A program made the translations under genes and the position numbers. This document shows positions 5,646 to 54,115 of a stretch of 56,022 nucleotides of DNA, one piece after another. The DNA comes from a virus (taxonomy: Duplodnaviria > Heunggongvirae > Uroviricota > Caudoviricetes), in the IMG/VR virus record IMGVR_UViG_2534681672_000003, positions 1 to 56,022 of that record; one strand, 5' to 3'. The notes under the pieces were generated by a model. It saw only the letters and a list, made by a program, of their open reading frames with translations. It was not told the DNA's origin and searched no databases. Every line of letters begins with the position of its first letter. The first letter of the stretch is position 1.

Positions 5646-8600
5646 TCAGCTAATCGTGATGCCTGCAGTGGCTTTCTTCATCACAACAACCAGCAAATCG
5701 CTGATACTTGCTGTGGGATACCAGCCATTTACCAGCCATGCTGACACCGAAAACTCCAGTGTCATGTGACCGTGACCGGCAGGCATATCAATAACGCCAC
5801 TGTAAATCAGCGTATTATCCAGCGCGGTACGGTTATAAATTTCAGCACCGTTTTTCCGCACTATCAGACGGCATGAGGAGTAAATATCAGTATGCTCTCT
5901 CTCATGCTTAGCGCCACTGAATGCCACCGCCGGAATAACAATTTGCCGGTCAAACGGCTGATCGTCATAAACCCTGACGGTAATGGTCCCTGATGGCCAC
6001 CGCTCCGGTGCCCGGGAGTCACGGGGGAAAGCTTTGCCCACTGTTTTAACGAGATCGCCTTCAATCTGGTTCGCGGACAGTTTTCCCAGAACCCGGCAGT
6101 TCTCGTTAATCGTGACGTTGTTGAGCGTCCCGGAGTTCGCATTCACGTTACCGCTGATATCGGCATTTTTCGCCGTCAGCCGCCCGTCCGGTGTCAGGGA
6201 AAATGCCGGAGGATTACCGCCGCTGGTAATGGTGGGAGCCGTCAGATATTTCAGGAACACTTCGTTCATGAATATCTGATTGCCCTGCGCCACAAACATC
6301 GGCGTTTCATTCCCGTTTGCCGGGTCAATAAATGCGATACGGTTAGCGGCAACCAGGAACTGGCTCAGTTTGCCTTCCTCCGTGTCCTCCATGCTGAGGC
6401 CAATACCCGCGACATAATGTTTGCCGTCTTTGGTCTGCTCAATTTTGACAGCCCACATGGCATTCCACTTATCGTTGGCGTCCTTCCACTCTTTCGAAAA
6501 CTCCTCCAGTCTGCTGGCGTTATCCTCCGTCAGCTCGACTTTTTCCAGCAGCTCCTTGCCGAGATGGGATTCGGTTATCTTGCCTTTGAAAAAATCCAGG
6601 TAACCTTCCGCATCATCGCTCACCCGACCGACAGCCTCCACGAATGTCGATTTGCCGACGGTGTTCACACTGCGAACGTAAAAATAATAATCATGGCCCG
6701 GTTTGATATTGATACTGGCGGCTATCCAGTACAGCGCCGTGCCAAGATAACGCGCGCTGGTTTCAACCTGCCTGATATCCGCAATCCGATTTTCCGAGAA
6801 CCAGAACTCAAACTGTACCGTCGGATCATAAACCGCAAGATGCGGCGTGGCGGTTATCTGAAAATAGCCCGGCGTCAGCTCAATCCGCGATGGCGCTGCC
6901 GGTGCGGCAATCCGGAACGATACCGACGCCGGATCGCCCTGCTGCCCCCACGCATTTACCGCCCGGACTGTCAGACTGTAATTTCCCAGAGCCAGCTGCC
7001 TGAAGCGGTATGTGGTTTCCGTCGTCCGGGCCGTGCTGACCAGCCGCTCACTGCCGTCATCCGCTGCCACGGTCAGGCGAAGCATAAAGCTCACGCCCTT
7101 CACCACCTTCGGCGTATCCCAGCGCGCCAGCACCTGGTATTCCCCGCTGTCTGCGGTGACTTCGGCGGTCAGGTGCTGCACCGCTGGCGGCGTGACACCA
7201 TTCACCGTGCCGCTCTGGTCGCCGTCAAAGTGCGCCCCGTTATCCACGATGGCTTCTTTTTCCGGTACATGCTGCACGGCAGTGATGGCATACGTGCCGT
7301 CATCGTTCTCACGGATACTCACACAGCGGAACAGGCGCTGGCGCAGCGTCGGCAGCTTCAGCCCCCACACGCTGTATTCGGCAACGCCGTCAGGAACCCG
7401 ACTCACTTTCACCTTCACGCCGTCGGTGACGGACTGAACCTCCACGCTGACCGGACTCCCCTGCCCGTCAACCAGGCTTATCAGCGTGGTACCGGAGGAT
7501 GGCAGCGTGATTTCACGGTCGAGCGTCAGCGTCCGGGTCTGGCTGTTCACCGCCAGCACGCGCCCGCCAATGCTGATCCCCGCATAGTCATCATCGCAGA
7601 TTTCAATAACATCACCCGGTACATGGCGAAGCCCTTCTGCGCCGACGCTGAAATCCACGGTCTGCGTTTCCAGCAGTTCTGTTTTAATCAGCCACAGCCC
7701 GGCGCGGTGTGCCTGCCCCCGGCTGGTACAGCCAAAGGCATCCATCTTCGTGACGTTACGACCGTAACGGGCAATGGCCTGCGTGTCCTCCACAAGCTCT
7801 GTCGCCGTCTCCCAGCCGTTATCCGGGTCAATCCAGTTCACCTCAACGGCATTATGACGGTCCTTCAGGGCGCTGAAGCTGTAGCGGAACGGCGCGCCAT
7901 CATCCGGCATCACCACATTACTGCGGTTATAGGTCCACACCTTATCCGATGGCCGGTCCTGCACGAACGTCAGCGTCTGCCCGTTCCATACCGGCATACA
8001 GCGCATCGCCGAGCAGAAATCACTGAGCACATCCCACGCCTTGCGCTGCGTGGTCAGCCAGGCATTACAGGTGATGCGCGGCTCCGTGCCACCAAAGCCA
8101 TCCGGCACCGACTGGTCGCAATTCTGGCCGATGACATACAGCGCCCATTTGTCCACATCCGCCGCACCGAGACGCTTCCCCATGCCGTAGCGCGGATGGG
8201 TCAGCATATCCCACAGACACCAGGCCATGTTGTTGCTGTATGCCGGTTTAAACGTCCCGTCCCAGATACCGCTGTATTGCCGCGTCTGCGGGTTATAGTT
8301 CGATGGCACCTGCAGAATACGCCCGCGCAGATGATAATTACGGCTCACCTGCTGGCTGCCGAACTGCTCCGAGTCCACCTGCACGCCGACCAGTGCCGTG
8401 TTCGGGTAGCACTGTTTCACATCGATGATTTCGGTGTATGACGACCAGAGCGTTTTGTTCTGCAGCTGGTCTGTGGTGCTGTCCGGCGTCATCCTGCGCA
8501 TCCGGATATTAAACGGGCGCGGCGGCAGGTTATCCACCACCACTGAGGCCAGATACTGCGAGGTGGTTTTACCCTTAATGGTGATGTCTTTTTCCGTCAC

Positions 8601-22074: not shown

Positions 22075-22792
22075 TTTGTGCACAGAAAACCCCCAGCTAG
22101 GCTGGGGGTTCCGGAAAGCTTTCAGCTTTGAGCCAGTTATTAAAACCCCTTTTGATTTGTTAAAACACTTTGCGGTCTGGCAACTGCAAGTGTCAAACAA
22201 GAAATCAAAAGGGGGTCCCAATGGGGAACGAAAAGAGCTTAGCGCACACCCGATGGAACTGTAAATATCACATAGTTTTTGCGCCAAAATACCGAAGACA
22301 GGTGTTCTACAGAGAGAAGCGTAGAGCAATAGGCAGTATTTTGAGAAAGCTGTGTGAGTGGAAAAGCGTACGGATTCTGGAAGCTGAATGCTGTGCAGAT
22401 CATATCCATATGCTTGTGGAGATCCCGCCCAAAATGAGCGTATCCGGGTTTATGGGATATCTGAAAGGGAAAAGCAGTCTGATGCTTTACGAGCAGTTTG
22501 GTGATTTGAAATTCAAATACAGGAACAGGGAGTTCTGGTGCAGAGGGTACTACGTCGATACAGTGGGTAAGAACACGGCGAAGATACAGGATTACATAAA
22601 GCACCAGCTTGAAGAGGATAAAATGGGAGAGCAGTTATCGATTCCCTATCCGGGCAGCCCGTTTACGGGCCGTAAGTAACGAAGTTGGATGCAAATGTCA
22701 GATCGTGTGCGCCTGTTAGGGCGCGGCTGGTAAGAGAGCCTTATAGGCGCATTTGAAAAACCTCCGGCTATGCCGGAGGATATTTATTTTAT
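22075..22792 (+). mobile_element. IS200 insertion sequence
   Basis: IS200-type TnpA flanked by terminal hairpins (about 22087-22110 and 22771-22789); boundaries approximate. Confidence 0.8.
22221..22679 (+). CDS. tnpA: IS200 transposase TnpA (Y1/HUH)
   Basis: MGNEKSLAHTRWNCKYHIVFAPKYRRQVFY... matches IS200 TnpA as recalled; trimmed to the ATG at 22221. Confidence 0.92.
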   Translation: MGNEKSLAHTRWNCKYHIVFAPKYRRQVFYREKRRAIGSILRKLCEWKSVRILEAECCADHIHMLVEIPPKMSVSGFMGYLKGKSSLMLYEQFGDLKFKYRNREFWCRGYYVDTVGKNTAKIQDYIKHQLEEDKMGEQLSIPYPGSPFTGRK

Positions 22793-38180: not shown

Positions 38181-38921
38181 TTACATCATGTCTTTTTCTA
38201 AAAAAAGTCTTGATGAATATTGATGGGGAGGAACACCAAAATATCTTCTGAAAACACTTACAAAATATGACGTGTTTTCATAACCGCATATCTCAGCAAC
38301 TTTTCCAACAGAATATAAATTGTAGCTTAATAACCTTTCCGCCATCACCATTCGCTCTTCAAGAATTAACTTACTAAATGATAAGCCTTCGTGCTTTAAT
38401 TTTCTTTTTAACAGACTTTCACTCAGATACAGTCTTGAAGATATATCACAAAGTCTCCATGCTGCAGATATATCCGTGTGAATAATAGCCTTAACTTTAC
38501 TTCCTAAACTATTAAGACATCCAAATAAAAAACTTTGCACTATTTTCTCTGAAGATAAGATAGCAAGACATGCAAGTGATATTTGATTTCTAACAAAATC
38601 CACAGTTCTGCCATCACAATTCAAGCATGCAATCAAGTTCTTTAACAATGAAAAATCTTCACATTCCACCATCAAGTATGCCGGATAAAACCTTCTTACA
38701 GAAAAAGGTGAGAGTGTGTTGCTTTTAAAGAAATCATTAACTGTTTTCTCTTCAACATCTACGATCATTACATGATCTATATTTGATGAAAAAAAATCTT
38801 TTAAATTGTAATCAATGAGAACAGCACTTCCTTTTTTAAACAAAATATCTTCTTTACCAATTCGGACATCAAACGAGTTCAACACCAAAATGATAGAACA
38901 TATGTATGGCATATTATCCAC
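38181..38921 (-). CDS. AraC-family transcriptional regulator (AT-rich moron between Q and S)
   Basis: C-terminal AraC HTH (VGKVAEICGYENTSYFVSVFRRYFGVPPHQY); low GC. Confidence 0.8.
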   Translation of the reverse strand: MDNMPYICSIILVLNSFDVRIGKEDILFKKGSAVLIDYNLKDFFSSNIDHVMIVDVEEKTVNDFFKSNTLSPFSVRRFYPAYLMVECEDFSLLKNLIACLNCDGRTVDFVRNQISLACLAILSSEKIVQSFLFGCLNSLGSKVKAIIHTDISAAWRLCDISSRLYLSESLLKRKLKHEGLSFSKLILEERMVMAERLLSYNLYSVGKVAEICGYENTSYFVSVFRRYFGVPPHQYSSRLFLEKDMM

Positions 38922-39263
38922 CTGATATCATTGGGGTTACACCAGGTAAGTATAGGTGGAAAATCAATATTCGCCAGTTCAACAATAAGGAAAATCTCAT
39001 TGCATCACAAGTATAAAATTATGTATTTAACTCACAAAGACAAATTATTAAACCAATCTGTTATATTATATATAGCTGCGTGGAATCATAATATTATATA
39101 TTTTGACTGGCATGTTTACCAACTTTAAGTTGCATCTCAATGGTTTCTTCAGCGTAAACAGAGTTTTTATACAAACTGACACTCTGGGTATCATAGTGTA
39201 GTTTTTACGATTGTAAATATCTTGCATGCAGGAACTCATCCTTTTGGATGATATCGCATACAA

Positions 39264-40223
39264 TTAATTTACCATCAGTCTTAGAGCCAGTTCGTCCGGA
39301 TAGGGAGCGAAGTAATTCTGTGTAAGCAAGTAATCATTAGGATACTCACCCAGATAATGCTTCAGCAGAGTCAACGGCGCAAGAAGAGGTAATGTGCCAG
39401 AACGATAGTTAAGTATAACCTCGCTCAACTCTTTACGCTGGCGTGTACTTAAGTAGTTACTAAAATACCCCTGTATATGCATCAGCACATTCGTGTGATT
39501 TTTACGTGATGCAGGTTTTCTGAGAATCGCCATCAGCTTATCACGATACACCTCAAAGTATGATTCAAGGTCCGCCCACTCGTGTATTGCAGCCACAAAT
39601 GGTCCCATATCTTTATAGCCTGCCTGACTATGCGCCAACAACTGAAGCTTATAACGACTATGAAAAGCTAATAACTCTCTTCTTGATAATTTCTCCTTGT
39701 AAAGGTGATTGAGCTCATGCAAAGCAAAAACTCTTTCAACAAAATTCTCACGAAGCACTGGATCATGTAATCGCCCATCCTCTTCAACCGGTAGCCAGGA
39801 AAACTTTTCCATCAAAGTGCTCGTAAATAGTCCCACTCCATCTTTACGACCTCGATTACCATTTTCATCATAGACACGCACGCGCTCCATGCCACAGCTG
39901 GGAGATTTAGCACAAACCACAAACCCCGATACATCCTTTAATTTGTCCATATAAGAACGACTAAACTCTGTCATTCTCTCTGTCACATCCTCATTCTGGT
40001 CGTGGCTGAAACACATCCGTATATTTCCTTGCGTCGAGCGCACAAGACGTAGAGCAGGACGCGGAACTGGCAGCCCTATAGCCATTTCCGGACATACTGG
40101 TCTGAATGTTACCCATTCCACTAATTTGTCCATTAAAAAGTCAGCTCTTTTGTGACCACCATCAAAACGAACAGCAGAGCCGGCCAAACAACCGCTGATT
40201 CCAATCACAGGTTTTTTTATCAT
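39264..40223 (-). CDS. DUF523/DUF1722-type protein (moron)
   Basis: N-terminal VIGISGCLAGSAVRFDGGHK resembles the DUF523 signature as recalled. Confidence 0.5.
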   Translation of the reverse strand: MIKKPVIGISGCLAGSAVRFDGGHKRADFLMDKLVEWVTFRPVCPEMAIGLPVPRPALRLVRSTQGNIRMCFSHDQNEDVTERMTEFSRSYMDKLKDVSGFVVCAKSPSCGMERVRVYDENGNRGRKDGVGLFTSTLMEKFSWLPVEEDGRLHDPVLRENFVERVFALHELNHLYKEKLSRRELLAFHSRYKLQLLAHSQAGYKDMGPFVAAIHEWADLESYFEVYRDKLMAILRKPASRKNHTNVLMHIQGYFSNYLSTRQRKELSEVILNYRSGTLPLLAPLTLLKHYLGEYPNDYLLTQNYFAPYPDELALRLMVN

Positions 40224-40415
40224 ATTCTCCCCCTTGACTAATTCATTAACACATAAACTGTGTAGTGCACGGAATAAATTGCCTTTCTGGCGTCATCACT
40301 GACAATTTTTCTGTTATAGACTATTCCTAATATAGTATGAAAGTTCTTTAAGTGATCGGTCGTAATCATCTATCTTTCATACTTACTCTCAACTATCAAA
40401 AGTACAGGATTTATT

Positions 40416-40940
40416 ATGAAGTTATGGCCTGTGTTGACTGGCATTGCACTCTCTTTCACTCTTATAGCATGTAAGGCCCCGACACCACCTAAAGGTGTGC
40501 AGCCGATTACAAATTTTGACGCCAACCGCTACCTCGGAAAATGGTATGAAATAGCTCGCCTCGAGAACCGGTTCGAACGTGGTCTGGAACAGGTCAGCGC
40601 TACCTATGGAAAACGGAACGACGGAGGGATTCGTGTACTTAACCGTGGATACGATCCAACGAAAAATAAATGGAGCGAGAGCGAAGGTAAAGCATACTTT
40701 ACTGGAGATACTAAAACTGCAGCGTTGAAGGTTTCGTTTTTTGGCCCCTTCTATGGTGGCTATAATGTAATCAAACTGGATGATGAGTATAAGTATGCTC
40801 TTGTCAGTGGTCCGAACAGAGAATACCTATGGATTCTGGCAAGGACCCCAACTATTCCAGATAAAGTAAAAGCAGACTATGTGCGAACCGCTCAAAAGTT
40901 GGGATTCAATGTCAATGAATTATTATGGGTTAAACAATAA
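40416..40940 (+). CDS. blc: outer-membrane lipocalin Blc-like lipoprotein
   Basis: Lipobox LIAC and lipocalin motif NFDANRYLGKWYEIARL. Confidence 0.85.
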   Translation: MKLWPVLTGIALSFTLIACKAPTPPKGVQPITNFDANRYLGKWYEIARLENRFERGLEQVSATYGKRNDGGIRVLNRGYDPTKNKWSESEGKAYFTGDTKTAALKVSFFGPFYGGYNVIKLDDEYKYALVSGPNREYLWILARTPTIPDKVKADYVRTAQKLGFNVNELLWVKQ

Positions 40941-41095: not shown

Positions 41096-41488
41096 TTATT
41101 TCGAACAATCAGCATCCATCTCCAATCGGAGATCCAACACCATCAGCATACCCTCCACTACGCCCTCAGCTTTCTGGAGCATCCTGCCAACCCAACAATC
41201 AGATCGCCCATGCTTACGTGCAAGCGCCATAAAAGTCATGCCGCCGACATAATAGTCCACCAATAAATCATGCAAATCGCTGTTGTTCTTTTTCAGACGG
41301 GCCATGCACCCGCAAATGATCATCGCGTCATCGTCACAACATTGCGGGCGAGATTTTACTTTTGAAGGAATTAATCCCTTAAAACCGGCGGCAATGGACG
41401 ACCAGGTCACATCTTCATGATTATTAGCCGCCCACGCTCCCCAACGCTCAAGAACCATCTGAATATCACGCATCAACTTACTCCACAA
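41096..41488 (-). CDS. late-gene antiterminator Q (DLP12 QuuD-like)
   Basis: [26 protein letters not shown]... matches QuuD as recalled. Confidence 0.85.
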
Positions 41489-44547: not shown

Positions 44548-46074
44548 TCAAAAATAAACCTCACCATCAACCATATATTTGAGAGTACTTATCGCCTGCT
44601 GGGCGGATATTGTTTTCATTAAAGGATAGTGTTTAAAAACAATGCCATTCATAAAATAGATATCACAGGTTTTATTATCTGTATTGATTATGATTTTTTC
44701 GAATGTTTTATAGGCAAGTGTACGACATAGCTCTCGCCCATTTTTACTGGTTAAGTCAATAGCATGAAAATCACCAAGTGAGCTCACCGCTTTACTCTTC
44801 AAAGTTTTTAATGATACAGAAGCCCTTCGTAATTCCTTATCTAATACTCTGATTTTTTCTGCTATAGCGGTAACTTCAGGCGCAACAGATAATGCAGCAA
44901 TTAAATTATTAATTTTCATCTGAAGCTCAATAATTTTTAACTCTAAAGTTTCATTAGCATCTTTCTTGTTTTCAACTGGTTGAATTTTGCTACAATTAAA
45001 AAGCAATTCATTAATGATATTATAATCAACCAAATCTCTTTTTATTGATGGCCTGTCACATCGATGTAATCTTCTCATCGGACAAACATAATAGCCATGC
45101 AAACTTCCAGATACCGCATGAACAATCATGGTATTACCACAAGCCTCACACTTCATAACTGTTCGAAGTAGATTTATTAGCATAGGATTCTTGCTACTAT
45201 TGCTAATACCAAAAGGTGCCAACCGAATTTCCTGTACAGCGTAAAACAAATCATCTGATATGACTCTGGGATAATAGCCAGCGATTTCACTTATCCCTTT
45301 CCCTCTTGCACGATATGAAGGTACGCATATACCTATCAGAGCTTTATTCGCTAATAATTTTTCAATTACAGAAGGTCCCCATGCACTTTCTTTTCCTGAG
45401 AAATTCTTTACAGCATGATCATTTAAATACTTGGCTATTGCATTCAATGAGCGCCTTTCCATCCTGAGTTTAAAAATTAGCTCAATAGTTTTCACCCTGT
45501 CGGGGTCTGGAACAAAAGCCGTTCTTTTGTCATCCAATGAGAGCCATCTCGGACAAGACGCCGTCATAATCGTACCTGATTCCAGTGCATCCTGCCGTTT
45601 TTTCTTCCATGATAATTTAACCCGACTTGACTTTATCTCGCTTTCTTCATTTGCCCTTTGTGCTATAAGTATGGCTTTTATTAATGAATATGGCTCATTC
45701 AAAGAGTCAATATTATAGACTGTATTGTCGCAAAGAGTTATAACATCAATACCGTGATTCAAAATCAATTTCAGACGTTCAATCGCTTCACCGACTTTTT
45801 CTCTTGAAAGTCTGTCCAGACTTTCAACTAACAATGTAGTTCCTGGCAATATATAACCATGCTCTATAGCATCTAAAAATTCCGAAAAAGCTCCTGATTG
45901 TGCATGCTTTCCTTTGAATGCACTTAATCCTAAATCTTCATATGTTATGGTATCAAGATAATAATCACTATTTACCTTTAACCATTCAGCAATAAGTCTT
46001 CTCTGTCGGTTTAATGAGTCACCAGACATCTGACCTGGTGATGAAAATCGCATATATGCTATGGCTTTTTTCAT
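44548..46074 (-). CDS. large serine recombinase (DLP12 YbcK-like)
   Basis: N-terminal resolvase domain AIAYMRFSSPGQ...SLNRQ, recombinase domain, and zinc ribbon CEACGN...YYVCP. Confidence 0.85.
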   Translation of the reverse strand: MKKAIAYMRFSSPGQMSGDSLNRQRRLIAEWLKVNSDYYLDTITYEDLGLSAFKGKHAQSGAFSEFLDAIEHGYILPGTTLLVESLDRLSREKVGEAIERLKLILNHGIDVITLCDNTVYNIDSLNEPYSLIKAILIAQRANEESEIKSSRVKLSWKKKRQDALESGTIMTASCPRWLSLDDKRTAFVPDPDRVKTIELIFKLRMERRSLNAIAKYLNDHAVKNFSGKESAWGPSVIEKLLANKALIGICVPSYRARGKGISEIAGYYPRVISDDLFYAVQEIRLAPFGISNSSKNPMLINLLRTVMKCEACGNTMIVHAVSGSLHGYYVCPMRRLHRCDRPSIKRDLVDYNIINELLFNCSKIQPVENKKDANETLELKIIELQMKINNLIAALSVAPEVTAIAEKIRVLDKELRRASVSLKTLKSKAVSSLGDFHAIDLTSKNGRELCRTLAYKTFEKIIINTDNKTCDIYFMNGIVFKHYPLMKTISAQQAISTLKYMVDGEVYF

Positions 46075-46328
46075 GGTGACACCTGCTAACGTATGCTTTT
46101 ATAAACCTTAGTGGTGGGATATAATTTTTGTTTAATTTTTATTTAAAAAGACAATTAAGGTCACATTATCTTGAATATACAACAATAATCGTATTGCAAT
46201 TTTCTTACGCCATAATCTTGAAAGCACAAAAGAATACATAAAAAATAAAGACATTAACAAAAAGCATAAAACGAGGCTCATATAAATATAAGAGCCTCCA
46301 TATTTTAGTCGTTTAGAAACAAATTATT

Positions 46329-46661
46329 TTAATGTGGTGTGCTTCGTGACAATAAATTAATAACCAACACACCGGCACAAATCAACATCATGCCTATAAT
46401 GGCTGGCAGGTCCAGCCGTTGGCCGAAAAGTCCCCATGACAGTAAGCTAATCAGGACAATACCGACTCCTGACCAGATAGCATAAGCAATCCCTGTAGGA
46501 ATATAAGCCAGCGTCTGAGCTAATAACCAGAATGATGCACAATAACAAATAATTGTACCAACAGATGGCCATAACCGTGTAAAACCTTCTGAAAACTTCA
46601 TTAAGGTTGTACCAATGACCTCTGCAAGTATTGCACCACCAAGATAAATATAAGGGTTCAT
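46329..46661 (-). CDS. emrE: small multidrug resistance efflux protein EmrE
   Basis: MNPYIYLGGAILAEVIGTTLMKFSEGF... matches EmrE; trimmed to the internal ATG. Confidence 0.92.
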   Translation of the reverse strand: MNPYIYLGGAILAEVIGTTLMKFSEGFTRLWPSVGTIICYCASFWLLAQTLAYIPTGIAYAIWSGVGIVLISLLSWGLFGQRLDLPAIIGMMLICAGVLVINLLSRSTPH

Positions 46662-46728
46662 AGCATATTCTTTCCTGTTCAAACTGGAGAGAATTGTACT
46701 ACAGTTTGAACTCAACTCACCTGTTTCA

Positions 46729-47031
46729 TCATTGTGTACCCATTGATGTTCTTTTATATACCCTCAATACCCGTTTCATCGCGGCACTCTGGCGACACTC
46801 CTTAAAAATCAGATTCGTGCTCACCTTTCCTTCCCGTTCTTCTCTGGTAGCGAACCGGTAATACACCGTTCGCCAGACCTTACCATCAACGACCAGGATT
46901 CCTGCCCGCGCCATTTTAGCCGCAGCCTGATTTATGCTGGTTACGGTTGCGCCTGTTACCGCGGCAACGTCCTGCGCACAGAAGTTCTTATGAGTCCCCA
47001 GGTAATGAATAATTGCCTCTTTGCCCGTCAT
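46729..47031 (-). CDS. ren: Ren (Rex exclusion escape)
   Basis: MTGKEAIIHYLGTH... matches lambda Ren. Confidence 0.9.
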   Translation of the reverse strand: MTGKEAIIHYLGTHKNFCAQDVAAVTGATVTSINQAAAKMARAGILVVDGKVWRTVYYRFATREEREGKVSTNLIFKECRQSAAMKRVLRVYKRTSMGTQ

Positions 47032-47729
47032 ACACTTGCTCCTTTAAGCCCAAACTTAGCTTTGATTTCTGCGATCTTCGCCAGAGCCTGTGCACGATTT
47101 AGAGGTCTACCGCCCATGACAGGAAGTTGTTTTACTGGTTCAGGTATAGCCTCACCACGGTTAATTCGCGCTGTCATACAGGTCAGTTCATCGGCAGCCT
47201 TGCGCCGTAATTCCGCGTCAGTCAGCGCATTGGCTCGCATGTTCTGGTACAGGTTGGTAACCAGCCAGTAGTGCGCGTTCGATTTCCATGGATAAGACTC
47301 TGCGTCCGGATACAGGCCACGCTTCCGGCAATACTCGTAAACCATATCAACCAGCTCGCTGGCGTTTGGCAGCCCGGCGGTAATGGATGCTTCTTCCCGG
47401 CACCAGGCGACAAACTGCCCGGGTGATGGCAGGAATGGTCGATTCTGCCGACGGGCTACGCGCATTCCTGCGTTAACCTGTTCCATTGTGGTGATCCCGT
47501 TTTCCCGGAAAGCCAGCACCCACTGGCGGCGGATTTCGTTCAGTTCGTTCTGGTCCCGGTTAGCCAGGCTCGCCGGGAAAGTTGCTAGTAACTGGCTGAA
47601 CACACCATTGATGATCTGCGCTACCTGTTGTACCTGCGGCTTTTCGTCGTACTGTTCCGGCATGTTGTTGGCGATCCGACGCATCTGCTCACGGTCAAAG
47701 TTAACCATCTGTGCGGCGATGTTTTTCAT
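47028..47729 (-). CDS. P: replication protein P (DnaB loader)
   Basis: 233 aa, lambda P-like. Confidence 0.95.
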   Translation of the reverse strand: MKNIAAQMVNFDREQMRRIANNMPEQYDEKPQVQQVAQIINGVFSQLLATFPASLANRDQNELNEIRRQWVLAFRENGITTMEQVNAGMRVARRQNRPFLPSPGQFVAWCREEASITAGLPNASELVDMVYEYCRKRGLYPDAESYPWKSNAHYWLVTNLYQNMRANALTDAELRRKAADELTCMTARINRGEAIPEPVKQLPVMGGRPLNRAQALAKIAEIKAKFGLKGASV

Positions 47730-48655
47730 AGCTCCACCCCGTAAATCCAGTCAGTGTTCGTCAGGTCGAGTTTTGGTTTGCTGGCTATCACGCCTGCCTG
47801 TTGCTTGTTACGGTTGATTTCGAGTTGGGTCCACTTATCGCGGAGTTTGGCCGGGCTCAGCACGTTACCGGACCAGAAGTTGTCCTGGCATGCCCAGCGG
47901 AACAGCACGCACATGTCGCGGTGGTTACGTCCGTCACGTTCACGCATCAGGCGGATATCGTTAGCCCACCCAGCAAAATTCGGTTTTCTGGCTGATGGTG
48001 CGATAGTCTTCACCATGTCAAACATCCACTCTGCGGCGGTCAGGTCTTCTGCTGTCCCCCACTTGCTGCCGCTCTGAATTGCAGCATCCGGTTTCACCAC
48101 AGGAAGATCGTTTTCTGGCTGGTCAGAGGATTCGCCAGAATTCTCGGACGAAAAAGGTTTTATATTGTCTTTTGTTAGTTTGTCTTTTGTGTTTACCTGA
48201 TTCGGGTAAACGCCTTTACCTGATTTGGGTAAACTTTTCTTACCTGATTCAGGTAAATTTACCTCTTTCAGGTAAACTTTATTTTTCTTACCTGATTCGG
48301 GTAATGTTGACCATTCACTGACCACATTATTAATGCCGATATTCCGCCCGCTCTGAATAAGAATCCCACGCTTTACCAGAACGCTTTTTGCAGCAGAACA
48401 CTTGTGCGGCAATATCCCGGTCAATTCGGAAAGTTGCTCGTTGCTCACCCAATCCAGTCTTTTATTAAAGCCATATGTTTTGCGCATGACAGCCAGAAAG
48501 ACCAGAAGCTGGTGCTGTGTTAATCCGGTCAGCATCACAGCTTCCAGCAACTCATTTGCAATGCGCGTATAACCATCATCGAGATCTGCCACGCGCGGCT
48601 CCTTTTGTGCCGCATCCGGCACTGGAAAATTGAATATCTCAGCAGTGTTTGCCAT
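47726..48655 (-). CDS. O: replication initiator O (lambda-type fold with its own N-terminal iteron-binding specificity)
   Basis: Homology to lambda O begins at MANTAEIFNF after a GGGAGG RBS; the ORF track offers a longer version from 48745. Confidence 0.8.
   Translation of the reverse strand: MANTAEIFNFPVPDAAQKEPRVADLDDGYTRIANELLEAVMLTGLTQHQLLVFLAVMRKTYGFNKRLDWVSNEQLSELTGILPHKCSAAKSVLVKRGILIQSGRNIGINNVVSEWSTLPESGKKNKVYLKEVNLPESGKKSLPKSGKGVYPNQVNTKDKLTKDNIKPFSSENSGESSDQPENDLPVVKPDAAIQSGSKWGTAEDLTAAEWMFDMVKTIAPSARKPNFAGWANDIRLMRERDGRNHRDMCVLFRWACQDNFWSGNVLSPAKLRDKWTQLEINRNKQQAGVIASKPKLDLTNTDWIYGVEL
48192..48305. repeat. ori iterons inside O: 5 copies of about 19 bp TTACCTGAttCgGGTAAAC (each an inverted repeat), with AT-rich tract at 48140-48190
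   Basis: Regular spacing; architecture parallels lambda ori within O. Confidence 0.75.
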
Positions 48656-48741
48656 AATTCCTCCCGCAATGAGTGTGTTACGATTTGCACCTGAAAGTCG
48701 GTTCTGTTCCAGCAGACCGGCTTTCGCCATTTCTGAACCTG

Positions 48742-49281
48742 TCATATCGCCCCCAGCATGGTAGTAACCATCGCCATCAATGGACCAGCCAGATCTGGGT
48801 CCACACGAAACATCGACACAATACCTTCACTAATTTCCTTCAGTTTCTGGTGGCGTGGTGCGTTGAGAATGACAGCCTGTTTTGCCTCACTGAGTTCCTT
48901 TTCCATTTCAGCCAACCTAGCCATGAAGCTATCCTGCTCAACCAGGTAACCGCGATATTCCAGCGGTAGTACCGCCAGAATTGCCGGGGTCAGTTCACGC
49001 ACGTTATTTCGGTATTTTTCAGAATCGAATTTGTTATCGAGGAAGCGGAACAGCTTCTGGCGTGCACGGCTGACATCATCAGGGAAATCGATGGTGCCGC
49101 CGCCCTGCTCCCGATACTCATTCACAATGAGTGTGGCAACGACATCCTGATTATCTACAGCCGACCAGGCGCGGACGGCATCACGGATTTTTTCGTGGCC
49201 TGGCACCTGTTTTGTTTGAGAACGATTTATCACCGCAGTCGGGCTAAATCCGCTAGTCTGTTGGTATGTAAGTGGTTGCAT
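48742..49281 (-). CDS. regulatory protein in the cII position (family uncertain)
   Basis: 179-aa ORF between the cro-like gene and O; no confident family assignment. Confidence 0.4.
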   Translation of the reverse strand: MQPLTYQQTSGFSPTAVINRSQTKQVPGHEKIRDAVRAWSAVDNQDVVATLIVNEYREQGGGTIDFPDDVSRARQKLFRFLDNKFDSEKYRNNVRELTPAILAVLPLEYRGYLVEQDSFMARLAEMEKELSEAKQAVILNAPRHQKLKEISEGIVSMFRVDPDLAGPLMAMVTTMLGAI

Positions 49282-49350
49282 AATTGACTCCTTTAGTTTG
49301 AATTGACTGTTAAGTTGATTGCTTATTGTTAAAGAGCGTGAAATGGAAAT

Positions 49351-49581
49351 TTAAGCTGCGTTCTTTTCGGTGTGTGGAAACAACTTCGGAAGATCCGGGC
49401 GAATCTGGTATGCCTTCACTACTCCACCAGTAGCCGTAACAATGCTGCCGACATGTTCAGGGGATACCTTTGCTTTGTTGTGAAGCCACTTATAGACGGC
49501 CTGCTGTGAAACTTCGCAAGCAGCGCCCAGTTTCTTTTGTGAACCAACGATATTGATCGCTGTTTTGATAGCTGGGTTCAT
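49351..49581 (-). CDS. Cro-like HTH repressor
   Basis: 76 aa with HTH KKLGAACEVSQQAVYKWL; GGAGG RBS; divergent from the repressor gene. Confidence 0.75.
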   Translation of the reverse strand: MNPAIKTAINIVGSQKKLGAACEVSQQAVYKWLHNKAKVSPEHVGSIVTATGGVVKAYQIRPDLPKLFPHTEKNAA

Positions 49582-49685
49582 AACAACCTCCGTGGTTAAT
49601 TTGAATCAAGATTAAAACTATGGTTGTTTTTAGTCAACAACCATTTTCGTTTGATGGAATAAAACCTTGGTTGTACATTTGGACT
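49582..49685. promoter_or_regulatory. immunity operator/promoter region with ATGGTTG...CAACCAT inverted repeats
   Basis: Palindromic half-sites repeated between the divergent cro-like and cI-like starts. Confidence 0.6.
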
Positions 49686-50375
49686 ATGAAAACAACACTC
49701 TCAGAAAGACTTAAAGAAGCCAGATTAGCGCGAGGCCTTACACAAAAGGCGCTTGGGGATTTGGTCGGGGTTAGCCAGGCTGCTATTCAGAAAATCGAAA
49801 CAGGGAAAGCTAATCAAACAACTAAAATCGTGGAGATCGCGAACGCTTTGGGTGTGCGCGCAGAATGGTTATCTTCTGGCGTTGGAAATATGTCAGACAG
49901 TACAGTGCAACCAATACAATCAACTGTCAGCCATTCCAAATACTTCAAGATTGACGTTCTTGATATAGAAGTCAGTGCTGGGCCGGGAGTCATCAACCGT
50001 GAGTTTGTAGAAGTTCTACGCTCGGTTGAGTACTCGTTTGACGATGCTCGTCACATGTTCGATGGTAGGAAGGCGGAAAATATCCGCATCATTAACGTGC
50101 GTGGTGACAGCATGTCAGGAACGATCGAACCAGGTGATCTGCTGTTCGTTGATATCACAGTTAAATCTTTCGACGGTGATGGTATCTATGCGTTTCTGTA
50201 CGACGACACAGCCCATGTAAAGCGCCTGCAAATGATGAAGGATAAGCTGCTGGTCATCTCTGATAACAAAAGCTACTCACCGTGGGACCCGATCGAGAAA
50301 GACGAGATGAACCGGGTGTTCATCTTCGGTAAGGTTATTGGGAGCATGCCGCAGACATATAGGAAGCATGGGTAG
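49686..50375 (+). CDS. CI-type repressor (HTH plus LexA-like S24 autopeptidase domain)
   Basis: HTH LTQKALGDLVGVSQAAIQKIE; C-terminal GDSM serine and KR lysine motifs; trimmed to the ATG at 49686. Confidence 0.88.
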   Translation: MKTTLSERLKEARLARGLTQKALGDLVGVSQAAIQKIETGKANQTTKIVEIANALGVRAEWLSSGVGNMSDSTVQPIQSTVSHSKYFKIDVLDIEVSAGPGVINREFVEVLRSVEYSFDDARHMFDGRKAENIRIINVRGDSMSGTIEPGDLLFVDITVKSFDGDGIYAFLYDDTAHVKRLQMMKDKLLVISDNKSYSPWDPIEKDEMNRVFIFGKVIGSMPQTYRKHG

Positions 50376-50496
50376 TACCAATTAAAAATTATCAACTGGG
50401 CATTGTGCTCATTCAGTAAAGAACTAATTCCTATCTTTGCTCTAGGTAGTAATATTAAGCCACCGCAATAATATCTTTACCTAACGGCGTAAGAAT

Positions 50497-50521
50497 CCCG
50501 GTCACCGTGCCGGGTTTTCTT
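50497..50521 (+). terminator. rho-independent terminator after the repressor gene
   Basis: CCCGG-loop-CCGGG hairpin followed by TTTTCTTTT. Confidence 0.6.
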
Positions 50522-50886
50522 TTGCCCTCCCCTCATCACACACACCGTTAAAAAAACCACCATAACCTCGCTTCAGTTATCGCTATGCGATTCAAGTCAC
50601 AAAATAAATCCATCCTAAATACAACCAGTTATATCTAAAACAGCCAATAAAACAACTTTTGTTGTTGACGATAAAACAACTATAGTTTTAAATAAGTTCA
50701 TCGCAACAACACAACGATACGGCAACTACCTGATTCACCGTTGCGATGACCGCTTAGATCCGCAGTTTGAATTTCAGCAGGCTTCGGGGAGTGCGAGGGG
50801 TGAAACGGACGCGTGAACGTCGGTGTGACCAGCTGAAATTAACTCAACATTTCATACCTTAGTCGCTTCAACGAGGCGGCTTAGTT

Positions 50887-51177
50887 ATGACAACCGGCGG
50901 CCATCCACCGCCTGAATACGCGCAGAAGTCTCTATATGTTCAGCAGCCCAGCTTACGGGCAGGAGTTTTTATGGTTCATCAACATTATGGAACGCAGACC
51001 GTTAATCGAGGTGCGGTCATGCCAGGAATGCTGGTCAAACACAAAGATGGTACCTGGACTGCATCAGCTAATTTACGCGGACGGCTTTATCTGCATCGCG
51101 GCATCGAGCGCACTTATACCCGTGATTTGCTCGTGGAAGTTTTTCTCGACGGACGCGGTAACGGCCTGAATCACTAA
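50887..51177 (+). CDS. hypothetical protein (early-left operon)
   Basis: 96-aa ORF; not N-, cIII- or Kil-like by eye. Confidence 0.3.
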
Positions 51178-51252
51178 TCCCCTTTCCTGTTTTCCTAATC
51201 AGCCTGGCATTTCGCGGGCGATATTTTCACAGCCATTTTCAGGAGGTCAGCC

Positions 51253-51549
51253 ATGAACGCTTATTACATTCAGGATCGTCTTGAGGCTCAGAGCTGGGCG
51301 CGTCACTACCAGCAGATCGCCCGTGAAGAGAAAGAGGCAGAACTGGCAGACGACATGGAAAAAGGCCTGCCCCAGCACCTGTTTGAATCGCTATGCATCG
51401 ATCATTTGCAACGCCACGGGGCCAGCAAAAAAGCCATTACCCGTGCGTTTGATGACGATGTTGAGTTTCAGGAGCGCATGGCAGAACACATCCAGTACAT
51501 GGTTGAAACCATTGCTCACCACCAGGTTGATATTGATTCAGAGGTATAA
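51253..51549 (+). CDS. gam: Gam (RecBCD inhibitor, short GamS form)
   Basis: [21 protein letters not shown]... matches lambda GamS. Confidence 0.93.
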
Positions 51550-54017: not shown

Positions 54018-54115
54018 ACATGAAAAGCAAAATCATCAGGGAGCTACAGGCTCCTTTTTTATTGTTCGCATTCATCCTCAAGCGTATTAACCAACAATTC
54101 AGGGATTAATGGAAG

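Follow-up and report, generated by a model that had tools for sequence, protein, structure and literature searches.

Early-left leader of a lambda-like Escherichia coli prophage lacking N, nutL, and put: a possible cis-acting 5' untranslated region upstream of kil

Textbooks present the N protein of phage lambda, acting at nut sites, as the model of processive antitermination; this protein has the arginine-rich motif TRRRERR. The one well-studied protein-free alternative to N/nut is the put RNA of phage HK022, which has a two-stem core (GAACGGC...GUCGG...GGCGGGUUCAGGAUGAACGGCAAU), is found as paired sites in the operons driven by pL and pR, the early promoters, and mediates factor-independent terminator read-through dependent on the beta-prime zinc-binding domain. 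Here we consider the early-left leader in a DNA stretch of 56,022 nucleotides (nt) from a tailed phage (IMG/VR record IMGVR_UViG_2534681672_000003, positions 1 to 56,022; hereafter, the window), namely, the interval 50522-50886, which comprises pL plus the first two thirds of a leader of about 270 nt, and the continuation of this leader to kil, the first gene of the pL operon. Two other described systems are close to this locus: the kilR gene of the Rac prophage, which has a small RNA (sRNA) derived from its 5' untranslated region (UTR), the Hfq-binding KilS (PMC8175672), and the rrn-type boxA, which at rRNA operons and CRISPR arrays is reported to keep Rho from terminating transcription, acting jointly with the Nus complex of the host (PMC5725501; PMC7665894).

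The studied element belongs to an E. coli prophage of lambda-like, Bievrevirus type in which the N gene, nutL, and put RNA are all absent. As in the N/nutL arrangement of lambda, P22, and 21, a repressor-controlled pL is followed by a leader and then by early-left recombination genes, whereas the window encodes no N-family protein and its pL leader contains neither boxA nor boxB. The locus resembles HK022, and also HK75, O276, HK639, and phiEt88, in being an N-less lambdoid with non-coding sequence at or near the pL start, but differs from them in that its leader does not match a put model, is not repeated after cro, and shows neither covariation nor excess stability. We tentatively favor an interpretation of the leader as a cis-acting 5' UTR that would govern the expression of kil and of the early-left genes, with protection by Nus and boxA confined to the pR arm, and give it a probability of roughly 0.4. 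The region is composed of the following features:

50497-50524, plus strand: intrinsic terminator at which the repressor (immunity) transcript ends, with hairpin CCCGGTCACCGTGCCGGG and then TTTTCTTTTG, fold energy -13.5 kcal/mol, kept in relatives
50647-50666: operator OL2, a copy that shares its type with the operators of OR (49612-49651)
50665-50693, plus strand: early-left promoter pL, -35 TTGACG (50665-50670), 17-nt spacer, -10 TTAAAT (50688-50693)
50673-50691: operator OL1, a 19-bp copy overlapping the -10 and 95% complementary to OR 49612-49630
50700-50970, plus strand: untranslated pL leader of about 270 nt with no conserved open reading frame (ORF) and no Rfam family
50700-50747, plus strand: predicted 5'-terminal stem-loop, in which AUCGCAAC (50700-50707) pairs with GUUGCGAU (50740-50747) around a CA-rich loop
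50800-50862, plus strand: arginine-rich reading frame, judged not to be a gene, GTG at 50800, VKRTRERRCDQLKLTQHFIP, TAG stop at 50860
50806-50839, plus strand: nearly invariant island with the hairpin GGACGCGUGAACGUCGG (50807-50823) and CAGCUGAAA, single copy in the window
50840-50862, plus strand: pyrimidine-rich, G-poor variable stretch, the site of a TCAAC (5-nt) duplication in some variants
50861-50889, plus strand: nine-pair hairpin AGUCGCUUC/GAGGCGGCU (50861-50881) followed by UAGUUAUG, -11.6 kcal/mol
50887-50970, plus strand: conserved kil-proximal part of the leader, including a non-conserved in-frame ATG at 50887 and the Shine-Dalgarno sequence AGGAG (50961-50965)
50971-51177, plus strand: kil, a KilR-type cell-division inhibitor of 68 amino acids (phrog_294), with a start conserved in other genera and the same 207-nt length as the Kil coding sequence in the RefSeq record of phage 4A7

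The candidate promoter proposed in the initial annotation (TTGACG, 17 nt, TTAAAT) is present in the sequence and is a genuine repressor-controlled early-left promoter, as supported independently by the operators that overlap it and by a conservation boundary between immunity types. The operator motif AACAAC-N4-GTTGTT has 8 matches in the window compared with 2.7 expected, and none of 100 shuffles reaches 8. A generic promoter scanner missed pL because TTAAAT has no A at position 2 of the -10, which the scanner requires. The mirror image of pL, the minus-strand promoter pR, was read from the sequence as TTGACT (49637-49632), 17 nt, and TAATCT (49614-49609). In relatives with two other immunity types the operator/promoter stretch is unrelated to that of the window, and near-identity starts at 50701, 7 nt past the -10, or, in the type that makes the third with that of the window (L054), at about 50734; transcription from pL is therefore likely to start at about 50700. 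The same leader was thus found behind at least three immunity types, with three unrelated operator sets. The stretch from the repressor terminator to the operators (50520-50612) is also kept in different immunity types; its terminal CACAAAATAAAT is similar to AAAAATAAAT, located upstream of OL in HK639 and in loci from other genera.

The downstream boundary of the leader is set by kil. The 96-codon ORF at 50887-51177, initially reported as an unknown, was identified as a KilR-type Kil by its match to phrog_294 ('Kil protein for bacterial septation inhibition'; E = 1.2e-38), which involves only residues 20-96 and spans profile positions 4-80 of 83. Homologs of kil were found in 14 other genomes, and 13 of the 14 begin with ATG GTT CAT CAG or a near variant, equivalent to position 50971 (12 of these 13 have enough upstream sequence to show the start). 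The AGGAG sequence lies 5 nt before this ATG. In two relatives (L127 and L185) a 1-nt deletion breaks the frame of the upstream ATG at 50887, and in two others (L119 and L153) a net change of 2 nt does so; these frameshifts, together with the downstream start in other genera, rule out an N-terminal extension of Kil from ATG 50887. Hence, as judged from these comparisons, the 96-codon ORF is kil with a spurious N-terminal extension, and its start is the conserved ATG at 50971; with this start the untranslated leader would be about 270 nt long (50700-50970), and not about 200 bp as estimated before. Public annotations of kil range from 68 to 139 codons counted from the stop: Kil has 68 amino acids in the RefSeq record of 4A7 and 77 (in the wrong frame), 128, or 139 in other public records.

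No ORF of the pL operon has a Pfam or PHROGs match to an N-family protein, and N is likewise missing from the RefSeq annotation of 4A7, a related phage. Nothing within three mismatches of the 12-nt boxA GCTCTTTAACAA is present in 50695-51260, and a comparison of the pL leader with the pR transcript revealed no hairpin, boxB, or segment common to both above the chance level. The initial annotation had noted neither a recognisable N gene nor a lambda-type boxA/boxB in the leader; both observations hold, the former in Pfam, PHROGs, BLASTP, and the 4A7 annotation alike. It had also suggested a search for small ORFs with arginine-rich motifs, and such a search does yield a candidate frame, the peptide of which begins with VKRTRERRCDQLK (VKRTRERR...), whereas conservation of the ORF and similarity to N were not found. 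The counts of variation, reading frames, and covariation given here refer to 45 distinct leader variants taken from IMG/VR. Position 50860 is T (TAG stop) in 11 of the 45 variants, including the window and PhiR34_1, and C (CAG) in 34, where CAG opens the frame into kil and gives about 125 codons. A 5-nt duplication puts 4 further variants out of frame, one variant has no start codon, and overall a stop or a frameshift interrupts the frame in a third of the variants. The leader of PhiR34_1, a viable, propagating phage, is identical to that of the window, including the TAG. BLASTP of the frame against lambda N gave no alignment, and the arginine-rich Kil extension has no Pfam or PHROG match. The frame was rejected as an N-like ORF on account of this stop and frameshift polymorphism and of the lack of profile or BLASTP similarity, and is judged to be a by-product of a CG-rich hairpin. 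The likeness of the interval to one that contains a small N-like ORF or a nut site is therefore only superficial, since the frame is not conserved and the sole boxA lies outside the interval, on the pR arm.

The put-like interpretation, advanced at first for the stem-loops of the leader, fails every membership test that was run. A covariance model (R1) was built from seven put RNAs, i.e., HK022 putL and putR and those of HK639, phiEt88, CobraSix, S9-5, and PdC23; HK022 putL was located by a published primer sequence (PMC9378689) and putR by similarity, and the alignment shows compensatory changes in stem II. As a positive control, the held-out phiEt88 putR, located between cro-like and cII-like genes, was recovered with 53.4 bits. 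With the filters off, the maximal score of R1 in the window was 8.5 bits (E = 0.77), and there was no match on either strand in 48.6-51.3 kb. When HK022 putL and putR were themselves aligned locally with the window, the similarity stayed at chance level. There is no second copy of the leader downstream of cro or on the pR transcript; a 15-nt likeness between the leader (CGCAGTTTGAATTTC) and the end of cro (CGCAGCTTAAATTTC) was judged to be due to chance (13/15 positions, p about 0.2), its second copy lying in coding sequence. An Rfam 15 search of the whole window at gathering thresholds gave nothing relevant, and at permissive E-values only chance-level microRNA-type matches appeared in 48600-51300, none of them with a gathering-level score or an E below 0.1. 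Structure prediction and the put covariance search, the two checks suggested for this interpretation, thus gave a fold within the shuffle range and no put match.

The predicted folding of the leader does not exceed that expected by chance: compared with dinucleotide shuffles, the fold energy has z = -1.76 for a 201-nt segment, -1.37 for 91 nt, and +0.50 for 276 nt. The stem-loop CGCAAC...GTTGCG noticed initially does exist (50702-50707 and 50740-50745) and is part of the longer AUCGCAAC/GUUGCGAU stem, although neither excess stability nor covariation among the 45 variants accompanies it. None of the 65 pairs of the consensus fold is changed on both sides, in a set of variants too similar to decide the matter. 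In the third immunity type (L054), where the loop is replaced, the 5' arm AUUGCA can still pair through a C-to-U wobble change, and this apparent survival of the stem would lend it weak support. The hairpin at 50861-50889 with its UAGUUAUG tail may at best be a weak terminator-like signal and is not listed by the terminator scan.

The conservation of the leader is uneven. Nucleotide diversity is 0.002 in the island 50806-50839 (2 variable sites of 34) and 0.006 in 50887-50970, compared with 0.013 in kil, 0.019 in bet, 0.023 in gam, and 0.026 in the kil-gam spacer, whereas it reaches 0.090 in the pyrimidine-rich stretch 50840-50862. The C/G ratio is 1.3-1.6 in 78-nt segments starting at 50830-50856. 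The two low-diversity islands, 118 nt jointly, contain 8 variable sites against about 19 expected at the gam rate, which is suggestive of constraint; the Poisson estimate is about 0.004 before allowing for the choice of windows, which were picked after seeing the data.

Other leaders that precede kil were compared with that of the window. In the Rac prophage of E. coli K-12, RefSeq places KilS (b4833) within the 5' UTR of kilR (L106:3406-3503). As in the window, a non-coding, RNA-producing region lies directly upstream of a KilR-type kil in a locus with YdaS/YdaT-type immunity, whereas KilS ends at a strong intrinsic terminator, so that kilR expression in Rac needs read-through, and the leader of the window has no such terminator. 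The leader shows no similarity to KilS or to the Rac leader (best blastn E = 0.71), and the Rac Kil protein is a distant homolog of the Kil studied here, with few identical residues in a global alignment; the Rac KilS region is thus a functional analog of the leader and not its homolog.

A different conserved pL leader, widespread but not annotated and characterized by the motif GTTCCGCCAGCCTGGCGAYAAGGGCA, was found in Enterobacteriaceae prophages of other genera and in phages mEp237, SPN3UB, SEN34, and PHB10 (L007-L019 and L227-L346, e.g., L316:7249-7383; mEp237, L347:3489-3623; ST64B, L348:2982-3110). The motif is located 10-20 nt ahead of a first gene that varies, and in front of the motif there is often a domain of about 70 nt, in which 9 of the 22 predicted pairs have compensatory changes in an alignment of 15 sequences; ST64B has the domain and lacks the motif. 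This family has no Rfam or put match, the two early regions examined, those of mEp237 and ST64B, carry no annotated N, and the element could be an undescribed regulatory or antitermination RNA. A pR-side copy of the motif in other genera was dismissed, as the few matches are antisense within the repressor gene. Both leader types stand right after diverse pL promoters and just ahead of the first gene, often kil, but the leader of the window is matched by neither model of the family: covariance model R2 finds nothing at 50700-50970 or in close relatives (the best score in the window is 10.5 bits, elsewhere, compared with 20-42 bits for held-out family members), and the nhmmer profile is negative as well. 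Local alignments of the leader with kil leaders of other genera are not significant except for two borderline cases (p = 0.017 and 0.023). The two types are linked by a hybrid locus (L340, about 5995-6118), in which about 60 nt near-identical to window positions 50852-50911 are joined to a canonical GTTCCGCCAGCCTGGCGAYAAGGGCA motif, with a different first gene (MKGNTKKTG...) and with the terminator of the upstream gene directly before the hybrid leader. Through this locus there is a hint that 50936-50965 may be a decayed copy of the motif.

On the pR arm and further downstream in the pL operon, two signals bear on the question of antitermination:

49326-49338, minus strand: consensus rrn-type boxA CGCTCTTTAACAA, matched exactly nowhere else in the 56 kb of both strands
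54038-54066, plus strand: canonical intrinsic terminator within the pL operon, with a GC-rich stem of 8 pairs (54038-54056) and then the U-tract UUUUUUAUUGUU, -11.1 kcal/mol

The boxA (49338-49326) starts 13 nt past the cro stop, 44 nt ahead of the YdaT-type 'cII', and some 265 nt away from the presumed start of pR transcription. It shares with lambda nutR the location downstream of cro, which is also that of putR, but it has the complete rrn consensus and lacks a boxB-like hairpin behind it. As at rRNA operons and CRISPR arrays, an exact GCTCTTTAACAA is placed in an unstructured untranslated spacer near the promoter (z = 0.13 for the surrounding RNA); unlike these systems, the window has such a site on the pR arm only, outside the interval 50522-50886, and none on the pL arm. 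The same boxA context occurs in 13 of the 80 related loci and in PhiR47_2 and PhiR34_1, and travels with this cro type only. No strong intrinsic terminator was predicted on the minus strand between pR and Q. Since boxA and Nus are reported to stop Rho termination elsewhere, protection of the pR transcript by host factors only is plausible, and by analogy antitermination of the pR operon in this N-less phage might depend on host Nus factors acting at boxA. The terminator at 54038 follows a methyltransferase gene and a phrog_303 gene and precedes a traR-like gene, xis, and int. It may be the own terminator of a moron or a barrier that pL transcripts must read through; given its location between pL and xis/int, pL-driven excision would need read-through.

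Under the favored interpretation, the leader would act only in cis, limiting and tuning the toxic kil message. The 5'-terminal stem-loop would protect the end of the transcript, while the long untranslated tract, pyrimidine-rich in part, would expose the transcript to Rho and RNases, and in this way, as proposed, leakage of the repressor would yield no Kil; the conserved sequence beside the kil ribosome-binding site would set translation. The leader would then not be a processive antiterminator, and early antitermination, if any, would be host-Nus-based and confined to the opposite arm, where the consensus boxA follows cro, resembling that of rrn operons and CRISPR arrays. The occurrence of elaborate kil leaders elsewhere, as with KilS in Rac, was counted in favor of the 5' UTR.

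Four observations weigh against this interpretation. The link between leader and kil is positional only, because the leader occurs without kil in the deletion variant L118, and kil occurs without the leader in L088, which retains only about 50915-50970 next to kil. The islands appear more constrained than neighboring coding DNA, which hints at a specific interaction that a plain 5' UTR does not explain. Read-through from pL to xis/int past the terminator at 54038 is not supplied by a 5' UTR. Finally, other leader modules begin just downstream of pL (the putL-like RNA of HK639 and the leaders of L010 and L013 with an HK022-type promoter), and the position of the leader would therefore be compatible with an antitermination element.

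The leader beyond the promoter might instead have no specific function, being a spacer that accompanies a kil-gam-bet-exo block of recent spread. The lack of a structure signal and of covariation, the tolerance of indels, and a diversity that over much of the leader is as high as in neighboring genes or higher all agree with such a spacer, as does the restriction of the leader in the phage collection to Escherichia phages, apart from short matches in Klebsiella and Providencia phages. We nevertheless regard it as unlikely, given the shortage of variable sites in the two islands and the intactness of the module behind three unrelated operator sets.

A new cis-acting RNA, put-like in action but unrelated to put in sequence and fold, could bind the elongating polymerase or block Rho and thereby provide read-through that needs no phage protein. 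Such an RNA would suit a phage that has no N, nut, or put and yet has a canonical terminator ahead of xis/int; the leader begins at +1, as HK022 putL likewise lies just after the pL start, it is reused behind different immunity types with a nearly invariant island at 50806-50839, and put-like mechanisms have been proposed by specialists for N-less lambdoids (PMC12315714). With no match to the put model, shuffle-level folding, no compensatory changes among the 45 variants, no pR counterpart, indels and many substitutions tolerated in half of the leader, and conservation that may reflect the recent spread of the whole leader-kil-gam-bet block, this explanation looks improbable. Its more specific form, in which the island within the G-rich domain 50764-50844 would be the cis-acting RNA and would render the pL polymerase resistant to Rho and to the terminator at 54038, is quite doubtful too.

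It is similarly improbable that the leader yields, by premature termination or processing, a small regulatory RNA of the KilS kind, kil being expressed only upon read-through. The precedent is KilS upstream of kilR in Rac (PMC8175672), and the 5' stem-loop and the nine-pair hairpin at 50861-50881 with its partly U-rich tail would fit, but the leader has no similarity to KilS and no Rfam match, the tail UAGUUAUG is a poor U-tract, and the hairpin was missed by the terminator scan.

A functional arginine-rich frame, whether as a leader peptide, as an N-terminal extension of Kil, or as a decayed N remnant keeping TRERR, is very unlikely. In its favor, VKRTRERRCDQLK recalls the lambda N motif, GTG 50800 has GGGGAG 8 nt upstream, most variants keep the frame open into kil, and about half of the substitutions are synonymous (our own count, not significant), but the frame is interrupted even in the propagating PhiR34_1, lacks profile and BLASTP matches, and precedes a kil that in other genera starts at the downstream ATG, and CG-rich hairpins give arginine codons by chance.

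The surrounding part of the window (47-56 kb) carries the immunity and early-left functions of a lambda-like prophage, in reversed orientation relative to the usual lambda map. Other annotated genes of the prophage are as follows:

41096-41488: Q-type late antiterminator
47028-47729, minus strand: P
47726-48745, minus strand: O
48742-49281, minus strand: YdaT-type 'cII'
49351-49581, minus strand: YdaS/Cro-type regulator (cro)
49620-50375, plus strand: S24-peptidase cI-type repressor

After the leader, the pL operon continues on the plus strand with kil, gam, bet, exo, several small genes, xis, and int, of which gam, bet, and exo are lambda-like. The early region is 99.6-99.8% identical to those of phages PhiR34_1 and Turner, and the Bievrevirus phages 4A7 and Perceval are relatives; PhiR34_1, Turner, and 4A7 are propagating phages of this prophage type. 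A match to the region was found in 2198 of 5426 complete E. coli genomes (about 40%), and in the best 20 of these 2198 genomes no annotated feature underlies the leader match. Searches for tRNA, tmRNA, and tandem repeats as possible identities found none.

Several additional loci of cargo were observed. In some relatives (L001:1648-3076, L003:1442-2992, and L105:5660-7076) two genes are inserted between cI and its terminator, i.e., at the position of rexAB; such cargo is annotated as the GevT/GevA toxin-antitoxin in PhiR47_2 and as an ASCH-domain pair in 4A7, and the matching stretch of the window (50376-50496) has none. Within the prophage, non-phage cargo occupies 38181-40940 and 44548-46715. 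The nin region carries an SMR/EmrE-type transporter ORF and a serine recombinase (labels from the 4A7 annotation), and ORFs for an AraC-type regulator, a 319-aa protein, and a lipocalin-like lipoprotein lie between Q and the lysis genes (labels from a reading of the translations). In the late region, the Hfq-binding sRNA STnc490 of Rfam has a full-length match of 144.6 bits (22088-22211, plus strand).

A very common group of phages thus has neither N/nut nor put on its early-left arm, and on the right arm only a boxA of the host type. If no early antiterminator is needed, the lambdoid paradigm would be simplified for this group. Should the leader or the boxA serve as one, the mechanism would be a new and easily testable one, and a leader acting as an antiterminator RNA would be the third solution to early antitermination in lambdoids, after N/nut and put.

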